DNA of 64,000 nt from assembly GCA_027493055.1 (NCBI GenBank), contig JAPUDO010000126.1:11901-75900 (forward strand), given 5' to 3'. The stretch comes from Niabella sp. GTDB taxonomy: Bacteria > Bacteroidota > Bacteroidia > Chitinophagales > Chitinophagaceae. The notes under the pieces are model-generated. The model did not search any database. It saw nothing but the letters and a program-made list of their open reading frames with translations, and was not told the origin of the DNA. Below are positions 1,498-55,925 of this stretch, one piece after another; the stretch's first letter is position 1; each line of letters opens with the position of its first letter. The translations under genes were made by a program, and so were the position numbers.

Positions 1498-1979
1498 ATT
1501 TATGATGTAGGATATAGGATTTCAATAGTCCTTTCCTTATCCTGTTATTATTTATTCCTGATTTTTGATTTATCTGTAGCTGCAAAAATAGCTGTTAGTT
1601 CATTAGCCTCTTTAATCAACCTATCCACCTCTATTCCTGTTTTCAACTCAGCTTCTTTTACTACTTCAAGCCAATAATGACTTTCATCCGCTTCTTCTAA
1701 CACCACTTCAATCTTATATAAAAAGTCCGCCGCAGACTTTGTTCTTACTGTTGCCCTGTAATTTGCACCTACCGAACCTGCAGCTCTTATTAATTGTTTT
1801 GCAGTTTCAAAACCTGCTGTATTTCTGGGGAAATACGCACAAAGTCTAATAACATCAATATGAAATTTCTTTGCTCTGTTTTGTAATTCTTTTCTGTCCA
1901 TAATAAAACGTTTTAGTGCTTAACATTAGTGTTTAGTTTTATAAACTAACGCTCACATCAGACATCCTAGATCATAAAT
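1498..1979. repeat. Inverted heptamer-derived arms enclosing the four-helix-bundle gene
   Basis: ATTTATGATGTAGGAT (1498-1513) and ATCCTAGATCATAAAT (1964-1979) are reverse complements at 15/16; both lie in 7-bp-periodic arrays. Confidence 0.85.
1548..1901 (-). CDS. Four-helix-bundle protein (23S rRNA IVS / TIGR02436 / Avd-like family)
   Basis: 117 aa with KQLIRAAGSVGANYRA...FLYKIEVVLEEADESHYWLE, typical of the family. Confidence 0.88.
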   Translation of the reverse strand: MDRKELQNRAKKFHIDVIRLCAYFPRNTAGFETAKQLIRAAGSVGANYRATVRTKSAADFLYKIEVVLEEADESHYWLEVVKEAELKTGIEVDRLIKEANELTAIFAATDKSKIRNK

Positions 1980-5327: not shown

Positions 5328-6284
5328 TCAGCCTCGTATTTTTTTTAGAATCCCGTTCATATCCTTTAAACATATTTCCTCAGCTGCGTATTTCCCGGCA
5401 TCATAACTATCTGCTTTGTCAAAAATCTTTTCTACTTCAACCTTATCTTTTCCATCAGGAGAAATAATATTTCCTTTAAATAATATTTCTCCGTTCGCTA
5501 TTTGAGCACGAGCGCTGATAGGTGTGGAGCATCCGCCCATTAAAGCACTTAGAAAATCGCGCTCTATTTTTACACAGGTTGCCGTATCAATGTCATTTAA
5601 AGCTGAACAGGCCGCAAGTGTATGGGTATCGTCAGTTCTGCCAACCACCATGATCGCGCCTTGCGCAGGAGCAGGCAACATCCAATCCAGGTCTATACTA
5701 TTTTCCGGCCGAAGGTTAATACGTTCCAAACCCGCTGCTGCAAAAATGGCCCCATCCCAATTACTTTCCGCCACTTTTTTCAAACGCGTATTTACATTAC
5801 CCCGCAGGTTTTCAATAGTCGTATTAGGGAAACGGTGCAGCCACTGTGCGCGGCGGCGGATACTGCTGGTGGCAATAGTAAGAGATGACAGTTGACGGTT
5901 GACAGTTGACAGGTTTTCTTCCTCTAAAACAATGAGGCTGTCATCTGTCATCTGTCCTCTGTGAACTAATATATCCTTATAATTCGCCCTTTTTAATACT
6001 GCAGCCTGGCTGATGCCCTGTGGCAATTGTACCGGCACATCTTTCATACTATGTACAGCAATATCAATCTTTTCTCCAAGGAGGGCAATATCAAGGCTGC
6101 GGGTAAACACACCCTGTACGCCCATTGCATATAATGGCGTTACCAGGTCTATATCACCTTCGCTTTTTATATAAACCAGCTCAGCCTTATGGCCATTACG
6201 TTCCAGCAAACTTTTTACAAGATCGGCCTGCCATACGGCCAGCTGGCTCTCGCGGGTACCTATTCGGATGGGGTTATTTTGCAT
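5328..6284 (-). CDS. hemC: Porphobilinogen deaminase
   Basis: IGTRESQLAVWQA, DIAVHSMKDVP, LRGNVNTRL, LPAPAQGA and GGCSTPI. Confidence 0.97.
   Translation of the reverse strand: MQNNPIRIGTRESQLAVWQADLVKSLLERNGHKAELVYIKSEGDIDLVTPLYAMGVQGVFTRSLDIALLGEKIDIAVHSMKDVPVQLPQGISQAAVLKRANYKDILVHRGQMTDDSLIVLEEENLSTVNRQLSSLTIATSSIRRRAQWLHRFPNTTIENLRGNVNTRLKKVAESNWDGAIFAAAGLERINLRPENSIDLDWMLPAPAQGAIMVVGRTDDTHTLAACSALNDIDTATCVKIERDFLSALMGGCSTPISARAQIANGEILFKGNIISPDGKDKVEVEKIFDKADSYDAGKYAAEEICLKDMNGILKKIRG
5883..5963. repeat. Heptamer palindrome (RG[A/T]TGAC)n inside the hemC coding sequence
   Basis: AGATGACAGTTGACGGTTGACAGTTGACAG (5883-5912) faces CTGTCATCTGTCATCTGTC (5938-5956). Confidence 0.85.
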
Positions 6285-33883: not shown

Positions 33884-33946
33884 AGATGACAGTTGAAAGT
33901 TGACAGATGACAGTAGTGCTGTCATCACCTATTCTCCGTCAACTAA
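33884..33946. repeat. Heptamer palindrome at the araD/araA junction
   Basis: AGATGAC AGTTGAA AGTTGAC AGATGAC AG followed by CTGTCATC...GTCAACT; same unit as in hemC. Confidence 0.8.
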
Positions 33947-34663: not shown

Positions 34664-34710
34664 TGTCCATGGTCGATAGTCCATGGTCCATTGACTATCG
34701 GCTATCGACT
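34664..34710. repeat. Heptamer palindrome at the araB/araD junction
   Basis: GTCCAT GGTCGAT AGTCCAT GGTCCAT TGACTAT CGGCTAT CGACT; GGTCGATAGTC pairs with GGCTATCGACT. Confidence 0.8.
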
Positions 34711-36349
34711 AAATGCTTTCCTCAATAAATTTTCCAAATGCTTCATATTGCTTCATACGTTTTGCGTAATAGGCCACGTTTTCGGGGATAGGATGGTATT
34801 CAGCATCAAAACCCTGGCCCATAGCCTTCATAGCATCGTTGACACTGGGATATAAACCGGCTACAGTTGCAGCAAACATGGCAGCGCCTGCAGCACAGGT
34901 TTGCTCAGATTTATGGATCTTGATAGGCATATTCATTACATCCGCCATTACCTGCATGATATATGGAGATTTCTTAGCTACTCCCCCTACCCCGATCAAT
35001 CCTTTCACCGGCACCCCTTCGCTGATAAACCTGTCAACTATTGCCCGCGCGCCAAAACAACTGGCTTCTACCAAAGCCTTAAAAATAGCAGGGGCATCGC
35101 TGCCCAGGTTCAGCCCCATAATGGCGCCTTTCATTAACTGGCTGGCATCGGGGGTACGGCGGCCGTTAAGCCAATCTACTGCCAGCTCATCTTCCTCATG
35201 CAGGGGAAGTTTAGCAGCAGCTTCCGAAAGTTCTTTTATGATCTTCGATCCAATGGTTTTTTGCAAATCTGCATCATCCAAAAACTGCAATGGCCAGGAA
35301 ATTAGATGCTTAAACCATGCATAAATATCTCCAAAAGCACTTTGTCCGGCTTCCAAACCAATCATTCCGGGAATCACCGAGCCATGCACCTGTCCACAGA
35401 TCCCGCGCACCAGCTTATCTCCAAACTCCTCTACGGGTACCACTAACATATCGCAGGTAGACGTGCCCATTACTTTACTTAGATAGTAAGGCTCTATCTG
35501 GCCGCCAACAGCGCCCATGTGCGCATCAAAAGCACCAATACCTACTATAACATCTGTACTCAGACCTAGTTTTTCTGCCCATTTTTCAGATAAATTTCCG
35601 GCTGCCAGGTCCGCAGTATAGGTATCAGCAGGCAGCTTTGAAGTAAAGCCTTCCAGTAGCGGGTCGAGGGAAGCGAAAAAGTCATTAGGCGGAAACCCTC
35701 CAAATGCTTCTGACCAGATACCTTTATGCCCCGCAGAGCAAACCCCGCGCTTAATATCTTTTACATCCTTTCCCCCCGTAAGAAGAAATGGCAGCCAGTC
35801 GCAATGCTCTACCCAGCTTGCTGTTGCGTTTCGCACTTTTTCATCTTCACGGAATACATGCAGCAGCTTTGCCCAGAACCATTCGCTGGAATATATGCCT
35901 CCTACATATTGCAGGTAGTTGGTATCAAATTTTGCAGCATGCCGGTTTATTTCATCCGCTTCCTTTATAGAAGTGTGGTCTTTCCATAAAACAAACATCG
36001 CATTAGGATTCTCAGCAAACTCAGCACTTAGCGCAAGCGGCGTACCCGTTGCATCTACAGCAACAGGAGTGGAACCCGTTGTGTCCACAGAAATACCTTT
36101 TACATTCCTGGCTACTTCAGGCCCGGCTTTTTCCAGGCACTCCTTAACAGTATGCACCAATCCCTCTACATAATCCAGCGGATGCTGGCGGAACTGGTTG
36201 GCAGCGGGATTACAATACAAACCTTTTTTCCAGCGCGGATATTCAAATACGGCAGCAGCAACTTCTTCCCCGTTACCTGCATTTAAAATAACCGATCTTA
36301 CAGAATCAGATCCGTAATCTACTCCTATTACATAAGCGTATTGAGACAT
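34709..36349 (-). CDS. araB: Ribulokinase
   Basis: GVDYGSDSVR, DTTGSTP, LWKDH, YSSEWFWAK, GAFDAHMGAVG and DWLNGRRTP. Confidence 0.96.
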   Translation of the reverse strand: MSQYAYVIGVDYGSDSVRSVILNAGNGEEVAAAVFEYPRWKKGLYCNPAANQFRQHPLDYVEGLVHTVKECLEKAGPEVARNVKGISVDTTGSTPVAVDATGTPLALSAEFAENPNAMFVLWKDHTSIKEADEINRHAAKFDTNYLQYVGGIYSSEWFWAKLLHVFREDEKVRNATASWVEHCDWLPFLLTGGKDVKDIKRGVCSAGHKGIWSEAFGGFPPNDFFASLDPLLEGFTSKLPADTYTADLAAGNLSEKWAEKLGLSTDVIVGIGAFDAHMGAVGGQIEPYYLSKVMGTSTCDMLVVPVEEFGDKLVRGICGQVHGSVIPGMIGLEAGQSAFGDIYAWFKHLISWPLQFLDDADLQKTIGSKIIKELSEAAAKLPLHEEDELAVDWLNGRRTPDASQLMKGAIMGLNLGSDAPAIFKALVEASCFGARAIVDRFISEGVPVKGLIGVGGVAKKSPYIMQVMADVMNMPIKIHKSEQTCAAGAAMFAATVAGLYPSVNDAMKAMGQGFDAEYHPIPENVAYYAKRMKQYEAFGKFIEESI

Positions 36350-38964: not shown

Positions 38965-40854
38965 ATGCTGGCCAGCCTTAGTAGTCAGCCTTTCAACGAT
39001 CCTGACTGGATCTTTGAAATAAAATGGGATGGCTACCGTGCTATAGCTGAAACAGGAAGTCATTTCAGGTTATATTCCAGGAACGGATTATCCTTTTCAG
39101 AAAAATTTCCTCCTGTGGCAACAGCTTTGCAAAACCAGGAACATGATATGATACTGGATGGTGAAATTGTGGCCTACAACGAAAACAACCTGCCTGATTT
39201 TCAGACCCTGCAACATTTTGGAGAAAATCCTGATACACCATTAGTGTACCAGGTATTTGATCTGCTTTATCTGAACGGGCATAGCACTACCTCGTTATCA
39301 ACAATCGAACGTAAAGAGCTTTTAAAAGAAGCATTGGCAGAAAATGATTTTGTAAAATATTGTGAGCATGTAGAACAAAGGGGCGTTGATTTTTTTAATG
39401 CTGCTAAAGAAAATAATCTTGAAGGTATCATTGCCAAGCGTGCTACAGCGCCTTATTCAGTTGGCAAACGCAGTGGCGACTGGCTTAAAATAAAACATCA
39501 CAATACCGAAGAAGCTGTTATTGCAGGTTTCACTGCACCACGTGGATCACGTAAAAAATTCGGTGCGCTGATACTGGGGCGGTATAAAGATAAAAAGCTG
39601 GTGTATGCGGGGCACACAGGAACTGGTTTTGACCAGCAGTCGCTAACAAAAGTGTATGACCAGTTACAGCCACTCATTACCAAAAAGTCGCCATTTGATA
39701 TAACGCCTAAAACAAATACACCGGCTACCTGGGTTCGGCCCGAACTGGTTTGCAATATAAAGTTCAGTGAACTGACAAAGGAACATATTTTCCGCCACCC
39801 TGTATTTATGGGATTACGTATAGATAAACCAGCCAAAGAAGTAACTATTCCTAAAAATGAAAAAACGATGGCAACAATTAAAAAGGCAGAAGGCAAAAAG
39901 CCTGAAGCAAAAAGCAGGACAGCTAAACATGCCAATAACCTGGAAGACAATCGCACGGTAAAGACCGGGACAAAAGAAGTAAAGCTCACCAACCAAAACA
40001 AAATGTACTGGCCGGACGAAGGGTACACCAAAGGCAACCTGGTTAACTATTATGAAAAAATGCACCCCTATATTCTTCCGTATTTAAAAAACAGGCCGGA
40101 AAGCCTGAACCGCTTTCCCAATGGAATTAAGGGCAGCAGCTTCTATCATAAAGATGCCGGTGATACAGCACCGGATTGGGTTGAATCTGTTGAAATATAT
40201 TCTGAAAGCACACAAAAAAATGTGGATTATATTATCTGCAACGACAAAGCAACACTTATATACCTGGCTATCCTGGTCTGCATTGAAATGTATCCCTTGA
40301 ATAGTACTGTCAACAAATTGGAGTATCCTACCTATATGATCATTGATATTGACCCATCTGGGAAAAACACATTTGACCAGGTAATAGACACCGCCCTGGC
40401 CACCAAACAGGTGCTGGATGAATGTGGGGCAACCTCCTATTGCAAAACATCCGGTGCATCCGGGCTGCATGTATTTGTGCCTATGGGCAACAAATATGAT
40501 TATGAGCAGGTTAAAACCTTTGCACATTTAACTGCTATGAAGATCACAGAATTATTGCCAGACATTACTACCCTGGAGCGCAATCTTAAAAAACGGGGCA
40601 ACAGAAAAATATATGTGGATTATCTGCAAAACCGGAAAGGGCAAACCATTGCCAGCGCTTACAGCGTGCGGCCTAAAAAGGGCGCTACAGTATCCGCCCC
40701 ACTGGACTGGAAGGAAGTAAAAAAAGGCCTGCACCCGTCACAGTTTGATATTAACACGGTCCCTAAGCGTGTAACCAGGCTGGGGGATATTTTTAAACCT
40801 GTGCTGGGAAAAGGCATTGATATTATGAAATGTTTGAAGAAGATGGAGGAGTAG
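38965..40854 (+). CDS. ligD: LigD ATP-dependent ligase plus primase-polymerase domains (3' part; frame open upstream to ~38872)
   Basis: EIKWDGYR, EGIIAKR, DWLKIK, KTSGASGLH and VDYLQNRKGQTIASAYSVRP. Confidence 0.93.
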   Translation: MLASLSSQPFNDPDWIFEIKWDGYRAIAETGSHFRLYSRNGLSFSEKFPPVATALQNQEHDMILDGEIVAYNENNLPDFQTLQHFGENPDTPLVYQVFDLLYLNGHSTTSLSTIERKELLKEALAENDFVKYCEHVEQRGVDFFNAAKENNLEGIIAKRATAPYSVGKRSGDWLKIKHHNTEEAVIAGFTAPRGSRKKFGALILGRYKDKKLVYAGHTGTGFDQQSLTKVYDQLQPLITKKSPFDITPKTNTPATWVRPELVCNIKFSELTKEHIFRHPVFMGLRIDKPAKEVTIPKNEKTMATIKKAEGKKPEAKSRTAKHANNLEDNRTVKTGTKEVKLTNQNKMYWPDEGYTKGNLVNYYEKMHPYILPYLKNRPESLNRFPNGIKGSSFYHKDAGDTAPDWVESVEIYSESTQKNVDYIICNDKATLIYLAILVCIEMYPLNSTVNKLEYPTYMIIDIDPSGKNTFDQVIDTALATKQVLDECGATSYCKTSGASGLHVFVPMGNKYDYEQVKTFAHLTAMKITELLPDITTLERNLKKRGNRKIYVDYLQNRKGQTIASAYSVRPKKGATVSAPLDWKEVKKGLHPSQFDINTVPKRVTRLGDIFKPVLGKGIDIMKCLKKMEE

Positions 40855-40908
40855 TCCATAGTCCATGGACCATCGTCTATGGACTATCGGTCAAATGACT
40901 AAATGATG
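40853..40908. repeat. Heptamer palindrome between ligD and the prfC promoter
   Basis: AGTCCAT AGTCCAT GGACCAT CGTCTAT GGACTAT; AGTCCATAG/CTATGGACT 9-bp perfect stem; TATATTTG -7 box follows at 40910. Confidence 0.8.
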
Positions 40909-40939: not shown

Positions 40940-42526
40940 ATGAAGTTTCACGACGAAATAATGAGAAGGCGTACGTTCGCCATCATCAGTCACCCGGATG
41001 CAGGTAAAACTACACTGACGGAAAAATTCCTGCTTTTTGGAGGCGCCATACAGGTAGCAGGCGCTGTAAAAAGCAATAAAATAAAGAAGTCTGCCACATC
41101 AGATTTTATGGAAATTGAGCGCCAGCGTGGTATCTCCGTGGCCACTTCGGTAATGAGCTTCGAGTACAATGGCATTTTGATCAACCTGCTGGATACACCC
41201 GGTCACAAAGACTTTGCTGAAGATACCTACCGTACGCTTACAGCGGTGGACAGTGTAATACTGGTAGTAGACAGCGTAAACGGTGTGGAAGACCAAACCC
41301 GCCGCCTGATGGAAGTGTGCCGTATGCGTGATACGCCGGTGATTGTGTTCATTAATAAAATGGACCGTGATGGTAAAAACCGCTTCGACCTGCTGGAAGA
41401 GATAGAAAAAGAGCTGAGCATTCAGCTGCACCCTATGACCTGGCCTATTAATAGCGGTAAAGACTTTAAAGGGGTTTACAATCTGCATGATAAAAACTTA
41501 CGCCTGTTTGCAGCTAACACTAAAGCTGATGATGAAGATGCCATTGCTATCAGCGATATCAATGATTCGGTTCTGGATGAAAAATTAGGAGCGGCTGACG
41601 CTGCCATTTTACGTGAAGATGTGGAATTGGTTGATGGCGTGAATGGCGAGCTGAACGCAGATGATTATTTAAAAGCAAAAGTATCTCCGGTGTTCTTTGG
41701 AAGCGCCATTAATAACTTTGGCGTGAAGGAAATGCTGGATACTTTTATCCGTATTGCCCCTACCCCGCAAAGTCGTGAAACGAATGCACGTAAAGTAGAT
41801 GTGGAAGAGCCAAAGTTAAGCGGTTTCGTATTTAAAATACATGCCAACCTTGATCCTAAGCACCGCGACCGCATCGCATTTTTCCGTGTGTGCAGCGGCA
41901 GGTTTGAGCGTAATAAATATTTTCACCATGTAAGGCTGGATAAGGAGGTGCGCTTCAGCAATCCTTACTCATTTATGGCGCGTGATAAAAGTGTGATCGA
42001 AGATGCTTATGCCGGCGATGTGGTTGGTTTGTTTGACACGGGCAATTTTAAGATCGGAGATACCCTTACAGAAGGCGAAGATTTTTATTTTACAGGCATT
42101 CCTTCTTTTTCACCAGAGATATTTAAAGAAGTAATTAATAAGGACCCTATGAAGACCAAGCAGTTGGAAAAGGGCTTATTACAATTAACAGATGAAGGCG
42201 TAGCGCAATTGTTTACACAATTTGGCGGTACCAAAAAAATTATAGGCTGTGTGGGTGAGCTGCAGTTTGAGGTAATACAATACCGCTTATTACATGAATA
42301 TGGAGCTTCTGTTGAGTTCCGTGCATTACCATTTTATAAAGCCTGCTGGGTCACCAGTAAGGATGCTAAAAAATTAGATGACTTTACAAAATTTAAGCTG
42401 GCTAACACCGGCGAAGACAAAGACGGGCACCCGGTGTACCTGGCTCAAAGCGAATGGTTCCTGAATACCGAGATCAGCAATAACCCTGATATTGAGTTTC
42501 ATTTTACAAGCGAGATACATAAGTAG
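40940..42526 (+). CDS. prfC: Peptide chain release factor 3
   Basis: [41 protein letters not shown] and GELQFEV. Confidence 0.98.
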
Positions 42527-43020
42527 TCCGGAAGTTGGAAAGTCCGGGGTCCGAAAGATATGTCCTGACAGTTCAAAGTGGTTGAAAAGCTATCGTTGTC
42601 CCGAGGCATCAATTTTTGGTGCAAAATCAATGAAACGATAACCTATCCTTAATCGTCTTTTCAACTGGAATCCCAGGTTACCGGGATGGAGGGAAAAATC
42701 TCGACGTGAAGTTGCCTTTTGTATAAAGCATTATAGGCGGTACAATAAGTTTCAGGTTCACATTGAGACCCCACCCTACAGTCAGTAGAACTATGGGCTA
42801 TCAGTATATTACAAAATATATCATTGGCAGTCCGGAAGTCGGAGGTCGGAAGAAAACGCTTGCACAGTCAACAATCTCACCTTTCCCTTCGGGGAATTTT
42901 GAGTTCCACATTTCGGAACACTATGCAGGGGCCACAAGGTCCGGAAGTCCGAAGTCCGGAAGTCGTAAAGACAAGTGCTGAGAGTTGAAAGTGGTTGAAA
43001 TATCAGTTATTTCCAACTGA
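42525..43020. repeat. Duplicated ~70 bp unit (AGTCCGG-type array plus a 34-bp conserved block) in the prfC/purB gap
   Basis: 42554-42587 and 42967-43000 match at 29/34 without gaps; a third AGTCCGG array lies at 42829-42852. Confidence 0.75.
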
Positions 43021-43256: not shown

Positions 43257-44594
43257 TTAATATTTCGCAGCTATGCCCGTGTAATTATGCGGCGTAATTT
43301 TCTTTAGCTCTGCCTTTATTGCAGCAGGTACTTTCAAAGACCCAATAAATTTATGTAAGGATTGTTTGGTAATGCCTTCTTTGCCCCTTGTCAAATCTTT
43401 CAAAGCCTCATACGGGTTAGGATATTTTTCCCTGCGCAGAATGGTTTGAATAGCCTCTGCAACTACGGCCCAGTTACCTTCCAGGTCTGCTTTTAAAGCC
43501 GCTTCGTTCAGCACCAGTTTACCTAACCCCTTTTCTATGCTTTTAATAGCAATAATAGTGTGGGCAACAGGTACGCCAATATTGCGCAGCACGGTACTGT
43601 CTGTTAAATCCCTTTGAAGACGACTCACAGGCAATTTAGCCGAAAGATGCTCCAGCAGGGAGTTGGCTATACCCAGGTTGCCTTCTGCATTCTCAAAGTC
43701 AATAGGATTTACTTTATGCGGCATAGCCGATGAACCTACTTCTCCGGCTTTGGTTTGCTGCTTAAAGTATTCCATGCTGATATAGGTCCAGATATCACGG
43801 CACAGATCCAGCAATATGGTATTGATCCGTTTTATACAATCGAAGTGCGCCGCCAGGTTATCGTAATGTTCTATTTGCGTGGTAAACTGCATCCTTTGCA
43901 ATCCCAGCACTTCTTCTACGAAATAGTTCCCGAATTTTATCCAGTCTGTTTTTGGATAAGCAACATGATGCGCATTAAAATTACCGGTAGCACCACCAAA
44001 TTTAGCAGATACAGGGATATAAGAAAACAATTGAACCTGGTTTTCGATCCTTTCTACAAATACCATTATCTCCTTACCCAATCTTGTTGGAGAAGCCGGC
44101 TGGCCGTGCGTTTTGGCCAGCATAGGTATTTCTTTCCATTGCCGGGCCAGCTCGTGTAAATGATTTTGCAGGTTCAGATAAGCGGGTAACAATTCAAACT
44201 CCAAACTATGCTTCCAAAGTAAAGGAATGGCTGTGTTATTAATATCCTGCGAGGTAAGTCCAAAATGGATCCATTCTTTGGCGTCTTTGGCGTCTGTTTT
44301 ATCTAATTCACTTTTCAGGAAATACTCTACCGCTTTTACATCATGATTTGTGGTTTTTTCAATCTCCTTTATGGCTTCAGCATTTTCCACGCTGAAGTGT
44401 TCTATTACATTGCGTAAATGTTTTTTTGCAGAGGCCGTCAGCTTTAAAAACTTTTTATCAGACAATAAAAACAGGTATTCGATCTCTACAATTACCCTGT
44501 ATTTGATAAGGGCATATTCACTGAAATATTCCTGCAGGTTTTGTACCTGTTTGCTGTAGCGGCCGTCTATAGGCGAAATTGCTGTTAAAGACAT
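43257..44594 (-). CDS. purB: Adenylosuccinate lyase
   Basis: LTAISPIDGRY, TNHDVKAVEY, THGQPASPT and GSSAMPHKVNPIDFENAEGN. Confidence 0.98.
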   Translation of the reverse strand: MSLTAISPIDGRYSKQVQNLQEYFSEYALIKYRVIVEIEYLFLLSDKKFLKLTASAKKHLRNVIEHFSVENAEAIKEIEKTTNHDVKAVEYFLKSELDKTDAKDAKEWIHFGLTSQDINNTAIPLLWKHSLEFELLPAYLNLQNHLHELARQWKEIPMLAKTHGQPASPTRLGKEIMVFVERIENQVQLFSYIPVSAKFGGATGNFNAHHVAYPKTDWIKFGNYFVEEVLGLQRMQFTTQIEHYDNLAAHFDCIKRINTILLDLCRDIWTYISMEYFKQQTKAGEVGSSAMPHKVNPIDFENAEGNLGIANSLLEHLSAKLPVSRLQRDLTDSTVLRNIGVPVAHTIIAIKSIEKGLGKLVLNEAALKADLEGNWAVVAEAIQTILRREKYPNPYEALKDLTRGKEGITKQSLHKFIGSLKVPAAIKAELKKITPHNYTGIAAKY

Positions 44595-44599
44595 TTTTA

Positions 44600-45080
44600 T
44601 TTAGTTGATAGTTCATGGTTGATGGTTCATGGAAGAACAAATCCAACCTATTACATAGATTCTCTGAGTTTGGTTATCATTTTACATAACAATTCATACT
44701 CGTTATAATACTTTTTAAACGATTCTTCGGTAATATAAGTTCTCATTTTTGACAGAAAAAGACAGGCCACAACCTCTATTGATGATTCTAAGTGCAATAT
44801 TTAAAAACCTCTTAAACTCTGGCACGGATTGCCCTGTGCTTCCCTCTGCAATATTCAATACAACAGAATCCGCCGCCCGTTTTATTTGAGAAGCAAGGTT
44901 AAAACGCTCTTCCACGGAAAACTGCCTTGCCAGCAAATCTATCTCGTTTGACAATTCCGCGGTTTTATGCCACACCTTCAAATCTTCAAATCTAAACGCC
45001 ATAGTTGAGAGTTAATAGTTCATTGCTTATAGTTCATAGCCTGTTCTGTGCGAACCATGAACCATGAACCATGAACTAAA
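44600..45080. repeat. Inverted (RGTT[C/G]AT)n arms enclosing the second four-helix-bundle gene
   Basis: 44600-44628 and 45052-45080 are reverse complements at 26/29; a third array at 45003-45039 can also pair with 45052-45080. Confidence 0.85.
44651..45002 (-). pseudogene. Four-helix-bundle (IVS/Avd-like) gene with a +1 frameshift
   Basis: MAFRFEDLKVW...SQIKRAADSVVLNIAEGS...FKRFLNIALR. Removing one A at ~44786 restores SSIEVVACLFLSKMRTYITEESFKKYYNEYELLCKMITKLRESM* ending at 44651. Confidence 0.8.
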
Positions 45081-45110
45081 AAGCTATCTTCGCAAAAATA
45101 AGCATTACAA

Positions 45111-45854
45111 GTGGAAGAAAAGATAAGAGTAGGCATTGTTAGTTATTTAAACACACGACCGCTGATCTATGGCCTGGAACGGCTCTCGATAAAAGATAAG
45201 ATAGCGCTGATAGAAGAACATCCCGCCTTATTGGCAGACAAGCTCAAAAACGGAGAGATTGACCTGGGGTTAGTGCCTGTGGCTGTAATCCCAAAGCTAC
45301 CTCAGAGCTATATCAACGGGAATTATTGCATAGGATCGGTTGGTGATGTGGCCTCTGTAGCGCTCTTTAGTGAAGCGCCGGTTGAACATATCCGGAAAAT
45401 ATATCTTGATTACCAGAGCCGCTCATCGGTGCAACTCCTGCAATGGCTGATAAAGCATCACTGGAAAACAGATCCTGAATATATTACCGCTAATGACGAA
45501 AGCTACATAAAAGAAATAAAGGGTGATACAGCAGCCCTGATCATCGGAGACAGGGCATTAAAACAGCGGCAACACTCGAAATATATTTACGACCTGGCCG
45601 GCGAATGGAAAGCAGCCACCGGCCTGCCTTTTGTATTTGCGGCCTGGGTAAGCACACGGGAACTGCCTGGCGGGTTTATTAAAGAATTTGATGAAGCCAA
45701 TGGATATGGGTTACAGCATATAGATGAAATAGCCGCCGAGCATGATAATGGTATTTATGATTTAAAGAAATATTTTTCGCATAATCTCAGCTATGAGCTG
45801 GACGAAGAGAAAAGAAAAGGGCTGGAGCTGTTTTTGAACAGTATTATGCAATAA
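45111..45854 (+). CDS. mqnA: Chorismate dehydratase (futalosine menaquinone pathway)
   Basis: VGIVSYLNTRPLIYG, LIIGDRAL and DLAGEWKAATGLPFVFAAW. Confidence 0.9.
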   Translation: MEEKIRVGIVSYLNTRPLIYGLERLSIKDKIALIEEHPALLADKLKNGEIDLGLVPVAVIPKLPQSYINGNYCIGSVGDVASVALFSEAPVEHIRKIYLDYQSRSSVQLLQWLIKHHWKTDPEYITANDESYIKEIKGDTAALIIGDRALKQRQHSKYIYDLAGEWKAATGLPFVFAAWVSTRELPGGFIKEFDEANGYGLQHIDEIAAEHDNGIYDLKKYFSHNLSYELDEEKRKGLELFLNSIMQ

Positions 45855-55844: not shown

Positions 55845-55925
55845 ACAGATGACAGTTGACCGTAGCGGCAAAGCCATCCACATTATTAATTATTAATTAT
55901 TAATTGTTAATTACTAATTGCTAAC
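55845..55925. repeat. Two heptamer arrays at the yfhO/GT4 junction
   Basis: ACAGATGACAGTTGACCG (hemC-type unit) and (ATTATTA)n at 55882-55925, which overlaps the yfhO stop. Confidence 0.75.

Follow-up and report, generated by a model that had tools for sequence, protein, structure and literature searches.

A decaying four-helix-bundle cassette in the purB leader of a Niabella genome resembles the intervening sequences of 23S rRNA genes

Intervening sequences (IVS) of 23S rRNA genes that bear an open reading frame (ORF) are known in several types, including those of Leptospira, Brucella, and Xanthomonas. The IVS of Coxiella burnetii, located in helix 45 of the 23S rRNA, is 428 nt long, is closed by a 28-bp stem, and carries in its loop an ORF for an S23p protein of the PF05635 family (Warrier et al. 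2016, PMC4990558). This ORF is preceded by GACAGAT heptamers in tandem, two or three depending on the strain; it is under reductive evolution, and ribonuclease III (RNase III) excises the element (PMC4990558). Mobility of IVS was proposed by Ralph and McClelland in 1993, as far as the citation in PMC4990558 conveys. A unit of comparable build is present in a 64,000-nt stretch of Niabella sp. DNA (assembly GCA_027493055.1, contig JAPUDO010000126.1, positions 11,901 to 75,900 of the forward strand), hereafter called the window. It occupies window positions 44600-45080 (481 bp) on the minus strand, directly before purB. We favor, at a probability of about 0.6, the reading that this unit represents a four-helix-bundle cassette of the IVS type that resides in the purB leader, its cargo gene dying and its arms persisting, and that by analogy its transcript is probably processed by RNase III at the terminal stem.

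How does the unit compare with the rRNA elements? The two belong to one size class (428 vs 481 nt), and each is enclosed by a terminal stem of similar length (~28 vs 29 bp). Both hold an S23p/PF05635 ORF in the loop that decays while the stem is kept, and both have tandem heptamers on the 5' side (GACAGAT in two to three copies in Coxiella, GTTCATG in 3.6 copies here). A frameshifted ORF, too, is reported for decaying IVS. However, the purB cassette lies in an mRNA leader and not in a helix of a 23S rRNA gene. Its arms consist wholly of heptamer arrays, the unit of which varies by protein subfamily. Furthermore, RNase III excision was demonstrated for the rRNA element, whereas for the purB cassette it is proposed by analogy; an rnc gene is present in this genome. 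The original prediction described the cassette as undescribed, which is too strong given the like build published for the ORF-bearing 23S rRNA IVS (PMC4990558). As far as the literature was searched, what is apparently new is the occurrence at mRNA junctions, the subfamily-specific units, and a stepwise decay series. That search returned no paper in which PF05635 genes at junctions of protein genes are connected with inverted heptamer arrays.

On the minus strand, the order of elements is a -7 box, ~12 nt, arm A, 12 nt, array B, the cargo gene, 18 nt, arm C, 5 nt, and the purB ATG. The features of the locus are listed below (MFE, minimum free energy).

45093..45100, minus strand: -7 promoter box of the Bacteroidetes type TAnnTTTG, TATTTTTG; motif match at 45100
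45052..45080, minus strand: 5' arm A, TTTAGTTCATGGTTCATGGTTCATGGTTC, richer in G than in C (G>C), GTTCATG in 3.6 copies; period 7 with 100% matches; pairs with arm C in the MFE and centroid structures
45003..45039, minus strand: inner degenerate array B, with the unit in antisense orientation; ends 1 nt before the cargo ATG (45002)
44715..45002, minus strand: N-terminal piece of the four-helix-bundle cargo, a 95-aa ORF; PF05635 positions 1-66 at 1.3e-20, TIGR02436 positions 1-63 at 4.6e-17
44651..44797, minus strand: C-terminal piece of the cargo, in another frame; PF05635 positions 67-105 at 1.6e-5, TIGR02436 positions 62-107 at 24.4 bits against a cut-off of 24
44600..44632, minus strand: 3' arm C, CCATGAACCATCAACCATGAACTATCAACTAAA, richer in C than in G (C>G); recognized as an array and by its pairing with arm A
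43257..44594, minus strand: purB, adenylosuccinate lyase; matches to Lyase_1 and ASL_C; the cassette sits in its 5' leader
45111..45854, plus strand: MqnA-like menaquinone biosynthesis gene, divergent, bordering the unit on the other side; PF02621 at 1.8e-50

The terminal arms (44600-44628 and 45052-45080) are 29 nt each, are complementary at 26/29 positions (90%), and have 423 nt between them; an arm core of 24 nt is 96% complementary. Both are period-7 arrays of GTT[C/G]AT[G/A], and a 15-mer arm pattern has 6 matches in the window vs 0.17 expected. Arm C ends at 44600, which leaves a gap of 5 nt to the purB ATG (44594-44592). Array B can pair with arm A over 22 nt at 82%, giving a possible local hairpin. 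In the cargo, the N-terminal piece has the four-helix-bundle core RxxxSxxxNxxE (RAADSVVLNIAE); Q39, R42, S46, and N50 are invariant across paralogues. The intact paralogue C68 matches the PDB relative 2GSC, a pentamer, at 1.7e-13. The cargo reading frame is broken after ...NIALR, where one additional base near 44790 shifts it by +1. This base is missing in two relatives, L022 and G020, which are in frame there as CTTAGG/CTTAG-ATC, and the frameshift of the assembled sequence may be an assembly error. The unit length, the arms and their 26/29 complementarity, the 5-nt gap, and the frameshifted cargo had all been given in the original prediction, and all were confirmed. Orthologues of purB were present in 40/41 relatives, and synteny with the MqnA-like gene is kept in most of the genus.

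Judged by motif, the whole cassette is transcribed as the purB 5' leader. The -7 box and the GCGAAGATAGC that follows it are kept upstream of purB in same-genus genomes with synteny, whatever comes after them, and a motif search between cargo and purB found no second TAnnTTTG promoter. Two TAnnTTTG matches inside the cargo ORF (44994 and 44941) are probably due to chance. Because the -7 box is placed only upstream of the cassette, purB transcription would start just upstream of arm A. A start downstream of 45052, which the original prediction had considered, is not what the motif points to, as the only conserved -7 box lies upstream of arm A.

The purB unit is one of a class. Some 18 PF05635 loci were identified in this Niabella genome, and inverted heptamer arrays flank 18/18 of them. 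The arm units are mostly the locus's own (TGACAGT, GACGTTA, GTCCGGA, GAGTAGG, GTCCATA, GAGTGAT, TTTGAAA, TAATTAG, and others). Arm-pair scores averaged 18.9 for cognate and 11.1 for non-cognate pairs, and the cognate partner was the best in its row at 12/18 loci, the exceptions being paralogues with a common unit. The cassettes span 412-599 bp (n=18, median 481.5) and are co-oriented with both neighbors at 15/17 loci. Protein ORFs lie within 25-240 nt of all 18, at junctions of all kinds, so that a placement "at essential genes", as first proposed, is unspecific. Cassette 1 of the window (1498-1979, minus strand, 482 bp) lies upstream of the next gene and has an intact cargo of 117 aa; over their outermost 16 nt (ATTTATGATGTAGGAT and ATTTATGATCTAGGAT), its arms are complementary at 15/16 positions. 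The near-identical size of the two cassettes, which had been noticed earlier, is real, but it is a property of the family.

The same design is found outside this genome. A set of 77 loci in other genera encodes the purB-cargo subfamily (MAFKFE... proteins, 51-93% identical to C68), in Mucilaginibacter, Pedobacter, Pelobium, Ferruginibacter, Cyclobacteriaceae, Roseivirga, Owenweeksia, and other hosts. Nearly all 77 have flanking RGTC[C/G]AT-type arrays with a lag-7 identity of 0.6-0.8. In a phylum-wide sample, PF05635 was found in 64/81 genomes, and the arms of 29 further phylum loci, mostly of period 7 and in a few cases of period 8, scored 21.7 as cognate pairs vs 10.8 otherwise. The design thus recurs at 18/18 loci of this genome, at most of the 77 cargo-subfamily loci, and at most of the 29 phylum loci. 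In other words, a PF05635 gene with inverted heptamer arms is a recurrent design and not a coincidence, as the original prediction had supposed from two instances.

The class also varies. Arms with an 8-nt period occur at L134, L145, L149, and L152 (e.g. CTAAGATG/CTGAGACT), with a lag-8 identity of 0.5-0.7, and the period is therefore not fixed family-wide. The 5' array of L159 has ~30 GAGACGC/GAGATGC units over >200 nt with a lag-7 identity of 0.86, which indicates that arrays are able to expand greatly. As to location, none of the 77 cargo-subfamily loci has purB or mqnA as a neighbor, so the purB association is Niabella-specific. At 36 Sphingobacteriaceae loci (within L053-L102; Mucilaginibacter, Pedobacter, Pelobium), the cargo-subfamily cassette occupies one conserved two-gene junction and is thus a long-term resident there, not a recent insert.

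Evidence of a link between repeat and protein comes from a test in which each flank of a locus had to contain two or more G[TA][CT][CG]A[TC] units with the right polarity. The test was passed by 83% of the 77 cargo-subfamily loci vs 0% of their distal flanks, by 10% of the other PF05635 loci in the phylum, and by 6% of the remaining loci of this genome. Across orders, it is the protein subfamily and not the host that the repeat unit follows. In the purB arms (GTTCATG/GTTGATA), the subfamily unit is changed by one base. This variant is also present at L082 and L118, and the nearest paralogue, C68, has GTCCAT-type units that are one base off the purB arms. The coupling is loose and not absolute, because protein and arm similarity within this genome are weakly correlated (Mantel r = 0.06, p = 0.21) and because C42, a close protein relative of the purB cargo, has different units of the GTCCGGA type. 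At the C42 locus (5906-6223, L003), the upstream flank carries the 5' arm and the first cargo codons in tandem duplication (...AGTCGGAAAG...CAGTGGCGTTCAAAG, again ...CAGTGGCATTCAAATTT), and the four-helix-bundle gene there is apparently GTG-started.

Parts of the design resemble other described systems. TAACTGA heptamers precede start codons in Beggiatoaceae, cyanobacteria, and a few Bacteroidetes (PMC4679880), and GGGAATC / GGGGAYT heptamers, including convergent pairs, occur in Xanthomonas and Nostoc (PMC4692102). Like the arrays described here, these have period 7, are intergenic, often lie a few nucleotides before start codons, are strand-oriented, and sometimes form inverted pairs. However, no gene family was named for them, whereas the present arrays enclose or trace to a PF05635 gene and their unit follows its subfamily. 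The Avd protein of diversity-generating retroelements (DGRs) belongs to the same Pfam family and has the four-helix-bundle fold. The purB cassette differs in having purB and an MqnA-like gene as neighbors and no adjoining template or variable repeats, and nothing resembling a reverse transcriptase was found in the ORFs flanking it. Genes named 23S_rRNA_IVP are located inside cas operons, where flanking inverted heptamer arrays were not reported (PMC3936711); there too, a gene of like family is wedged between co-oriented operon genes. Assignment to a miniature inverted-repeat transposable element or an insertion sequence-type element was rejected: the 18 cassettes each have their own arms, none are near-identical copies, no direct repeat is visible at the borders, and the cargo has no transposase domain. 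Membership in a riboswitch or attenuator class was likewise rejected, as array B lies in the least conserved segment, C68 has no array B, and an Rfam search of 44400-45300 gave no family match.

The purB leaders of related Niabella genomes present one orthologous site as a natural series that runs from an intact-type cassette through a frameshift, an internal deletion, and a remnant loop to a bare hairpin. The leader holds this cassette in the window genome, in G020, and in L022. At L033, arms of the purB-cassette unit surround a 75-nt loop that encodes the remnant YYYELQCRMITKCRKD, comparable to the cargo C-terminus YNEYELLCKMITKLRES. In L023 and L024, the cassette in the leader belongs to another four-helix-bundle subfamily (25-28% identity), and its units are GGAT[AG]C[CT]. 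Cargo-less GTTTAAx/GTTCAAA hairpins are present in L025-27, L029, L034-38, L040, and L044, TTTGAAA-type arrays in L028, and no obvious array was seen in the purB leaders of L030, L031, L032, and L039. These states are patchy on the purB tree.

When was the cargo lost? Identity between the window genome and L022 by codon position is 0.91/0.98/0.54 for purB and 0.93/0.92/0.67 for the cargo. This coding-type divergence indicates that the cargo was functional, and under protein-level selection, until recently. The L022 cargo has lost its conserved core in a 54-nt in-frame deletion between GAATATTGCA direct repeats. The deletion aligns to window 44793-44858, where the repeat copies are TGCAATATT at 44793 and 44847, and it has the appearance of a textbook direct-repeat deletion. 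G020, the closest relative, with flanks that are 96% identical, has other cargo indels, although its genome is a draft and they should be read with that caveat. In L033, a large deletion left the C-terminal remnant. The cargo was thus lost by no fewer than three different routes, whereas arrays of the unit were retained. These independent lesions alongside persisting arrays show that the cargo is dispensable at the purB site, and also that cargo-less heptamer hairpins can arise from gene-bearing cassettes.

At what level does the design act? A census of arrays in this genome counted 383 of period 7; periods 8 and 9 were rarer, with 110 and 70 arrays. By crude gene calls, 82% of the period-7 arrays are intergenic in a genome that is ~13% intergenic. 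Beyond the cassettes there are 371 arrays, and 140 of them reach a score of 16 or more against an arm of one of the 18 cassettes, vs 23 of the column-permuted controls. The arrays have a marked polarity. Among hairpins that lie between co-oriented genes, 21 have a G>C arm on the 5' side and 4 a C>G arm; these hairpins come from a first census of inverted array pairs (41 vs 12 in the control), which was too strict and was used for the polarity test alone. Of the arrays that end at most 40 nt before a start codon, 65 are C>G and 13 G>C (background 59% C>G), with a median gap of 9 nt, and those directly behind a stop codon comprise 60 G>C and 29 C>G arrays (background 53% G>C). This polarity argues for the transcript as the level at which the array design is read or, at the very least, filtered.

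The predicted fold of the 504-nt transcript has an MFE of -131.9 kcal/mol (z = -3.2 vs shuffles), and the A-C terminal stem encloses the cassette in both the MFE and the centroid structures. The A:C duplex is calculated at -36.2 kcal/mol and the A-B hairpin alone at -27.8 kcal/mol. Blocking arm C costs 16 kcal/mol, and blocking array B costs 5. At equilibrium, 26.2 A-C base pairs are expected and 0.0 A-B pairs; the A-B hairpin forms only with arm C absent or blocked. Since it forms in a transcript still without C, A-B is plausible as a co-transcriptional intermediate. L022 also has an A-B hairpin, a weaker one of -18.3 kcal/mol.

Taken with the IVS analogy, these features lead to the following model. 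The purB unit would be a degenerating member of a widespread class, in which a single PF05635/TIGR02436 gene lies within inverted heptamer arrays. Judged by the promoter motif, it lies between the purB promoter and start codon; it is co-oriented with purB, and the class is polar, with a G-rich arm on the 5' side and a C-rich arm immediately ahead of the following start codon. RNase III may then cut the terminal stem, by analogy with the Coxiella and Leptospira IVS, and release the cassette RNA, and the purB mRNA would be left with a short, G-poor leader. The element would be tolerated, and possibly now needed, in the maturation of the purB mRNA. Under this model, the A-B hairpin most likely arises incidentally from the presence of a third array of the arm unit and does not act as a switch.

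Several results weigh against this model, and in particular against a selected helix. Mismatched arm positions are G.U rather than A.C in 25 vs 19 cases in this genome and in 79 vs 101 cases at related loci. There is no G.U excess and thus no wobble signature of selection for a sense-RNA helix. The pairing is also not private to the two arms. Arm A scores 23 with arm C, whereas with unrelated arrays of its unit elsewhere in the genome it reaches 23 or more in 2 cases, 20 or more in 10, and 27 at most; the original prediction had named a complementarity no greater than that between like-unit arrays as a finding that would count against its proposal, and this is the case here. What stands above chance is the inverted placement of like-unit arrays around a gene, not a privately tuned stem. 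The lack of a G.U excess, together with the equal pairing with unrelated arrays, suggests that the conserved thing may be the unit itself (e.g. as a binding site), or arrays regenerated by slippage, and not a particular helix.

Conservation of the arms points the same way. Arms of the window genome and L022 are identical at 53/55 positions. Against G020, the arms are 0.86 and 0.79 identical vs 0.86-0.89 for the pseudogene, and are therefore no better conserved; their differences are gains, losses, and swaps of units. The spacer and array B form the least conserved segment in this comparison, at 0.67. Stronger purifying selection on the arms than on the pseudogene was considered and set aside, as it held against L022 and failed against the closer G020. 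The case for arm selection rests on the persistence of the unit family over deeper divergence, which homogenization by slippage could also maintain. Compensatory change between the L023 and L024 arms was another candidate that was rejected, because cross-pair scores are as high as cognate ones. Finally, a 29-bp stem 5 nt from the ATG could inhibit purB translation as well as help it.

Tandem heptamers have been reported as over-represented among the longer tandem repeats of many bacterial genomes. The purB locus joins three unexplained things: these heptamers, the 23S rRNA IVS, and the PF05635 family, which includes Avd. A wider reading, which we hold only tentatively, is that PF05635 proteins and heptamer arrays form one genetic system. 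Each subfamily would recognize its own unit, an armed gene would be autonomous, and the hundreds of cargo-less hairpins and arrays at cistron boundaries would be its decayed or non-autonomous derivatives. The arrays, with a G-rich arm behind the upstream gene and a C-rich arm ~9 nt ahead of the next start codon, would act on transcripts, through mRNA processing or through translation initiation in bacteria without Shine-Dalgarno sequences, and the 23S IVS would be copies that landed in rRNA. The purB series of Niabella would present this decay step by step; it shows the cargo to be dispensable there and gene-bearing cassettes to be a possible source of orphan heptamer hairpins. Should RNase III processing or cognate binding of protein and repeat be confirmed, the arrays would constitute a widespread layer of mRNA organization at Bacteroidota cistron boundaries. 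The purB leader offers a testable substrate for it, with one leader, one essential gene, and defined arms.

Two other explanations are compatible with the IVS-type cassette and do not exclude it. One possibility, which we regard as unlikely, is a mobile element acting at the DNA level. Here, the arrays are terminal inverted repeats or DNA-protein sites for insertion and excision, the protein is the recognition factor, and the hairpin is incidental. The co-variation of unit and subfamily across orders would fit, as would the lack of a G.U signature of RNA-level selection and the occurrence of one subfamily in ~20 genomic contexts. It would also account for sister-species purB leaders that hold a cassette of another subfamily with another unit, or cargo-less hairpins, and mobility is what Ralph and McClelland proposed for IVS, in so far as PMC4990558 reports it. 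However, there is no transposase or recombinase and no visible target-site duplication at the borders, and the 18 cassettes are all distinct. Long-term residence at conserved sites, as at the 36 Sphingobacteriaceae loci in one context, also speaks against it. Furthermore, the strong transcript polarity is unexpected for such an element unless counter-selection removes the other orientation.

Slightly less probable still is a trans-acting system of proteins and repeats, in which each subfamily binds its own heptamer in RNA, the ~370 orphan arrays are a regulon for transcript stability or translation initiation, and the cassette is a regulator placed in its own site. The excess of intergenic period-7 arrays, the match of orphan arrays to cassette arms, their strand polarity and short distance to start codons, and the tracking of unit with subfamily are all in its favor, and relatives in the family work with nucleic acids (Avd in DGRs, PMC10053308; the pentameric toroid 2GSC). 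However, the weak correlation of protein and arm within this genome and the differing units of C42 speak against it. Moreover, the purB arms outlive a dead cargo, so that a paralogue must serve them, and the unit of the nearest one, C68, is one base off.

The weakest alternative is the riboregulatory switch of the original prediction, in which arm A pairs either with B, masking the cargo start, or with C, masking the purB leader, and translation of the cargo decides between them: the two pairings are indeed possible and exclusive, A-B comes first in a transcript still without C, and L022 has its weaker A-B hairpin, but the possibility of pairing is all that speaks for it, and it is very improbable given a preference of ~16 kcal/mol for A-C with no A-B pairs expected at equilibrium, the fast evolution of the spacer and array B, the absence of B from C68 and the many related loci where the arm lies too near the ATG to fit it, the persistence of the arms despite a cargo with a frameshift here and deletions in relatives, and the lack of an Rfam regulatory RNA.

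Arrays without a cargo also occur elsewhere in the window. The convergent spacer between prfC and purB (730 nt; window 42526-43000) contains two direct 62-nt copies that are 76% identical and 413 nt apart. Each opens with GTCCGGAAGT-type arrays, which belong to the unit family of the C42 cassette, and a third array is located at 42822-42843; the arrays of this spacer have no inverted partner and no detectable PF05635 remnant. Further cargo-less arrays or hairpins are located at 5886-5962, 33887-33946, 34665-34711, 40852-40889, and 55882-55924. Their units (TGACAGT, GTCCATG/GACTATC, TAGTCCA, and ATTATTA/TAATTGC) resemble the arms of cassettes C114, C68, and C76/C104.

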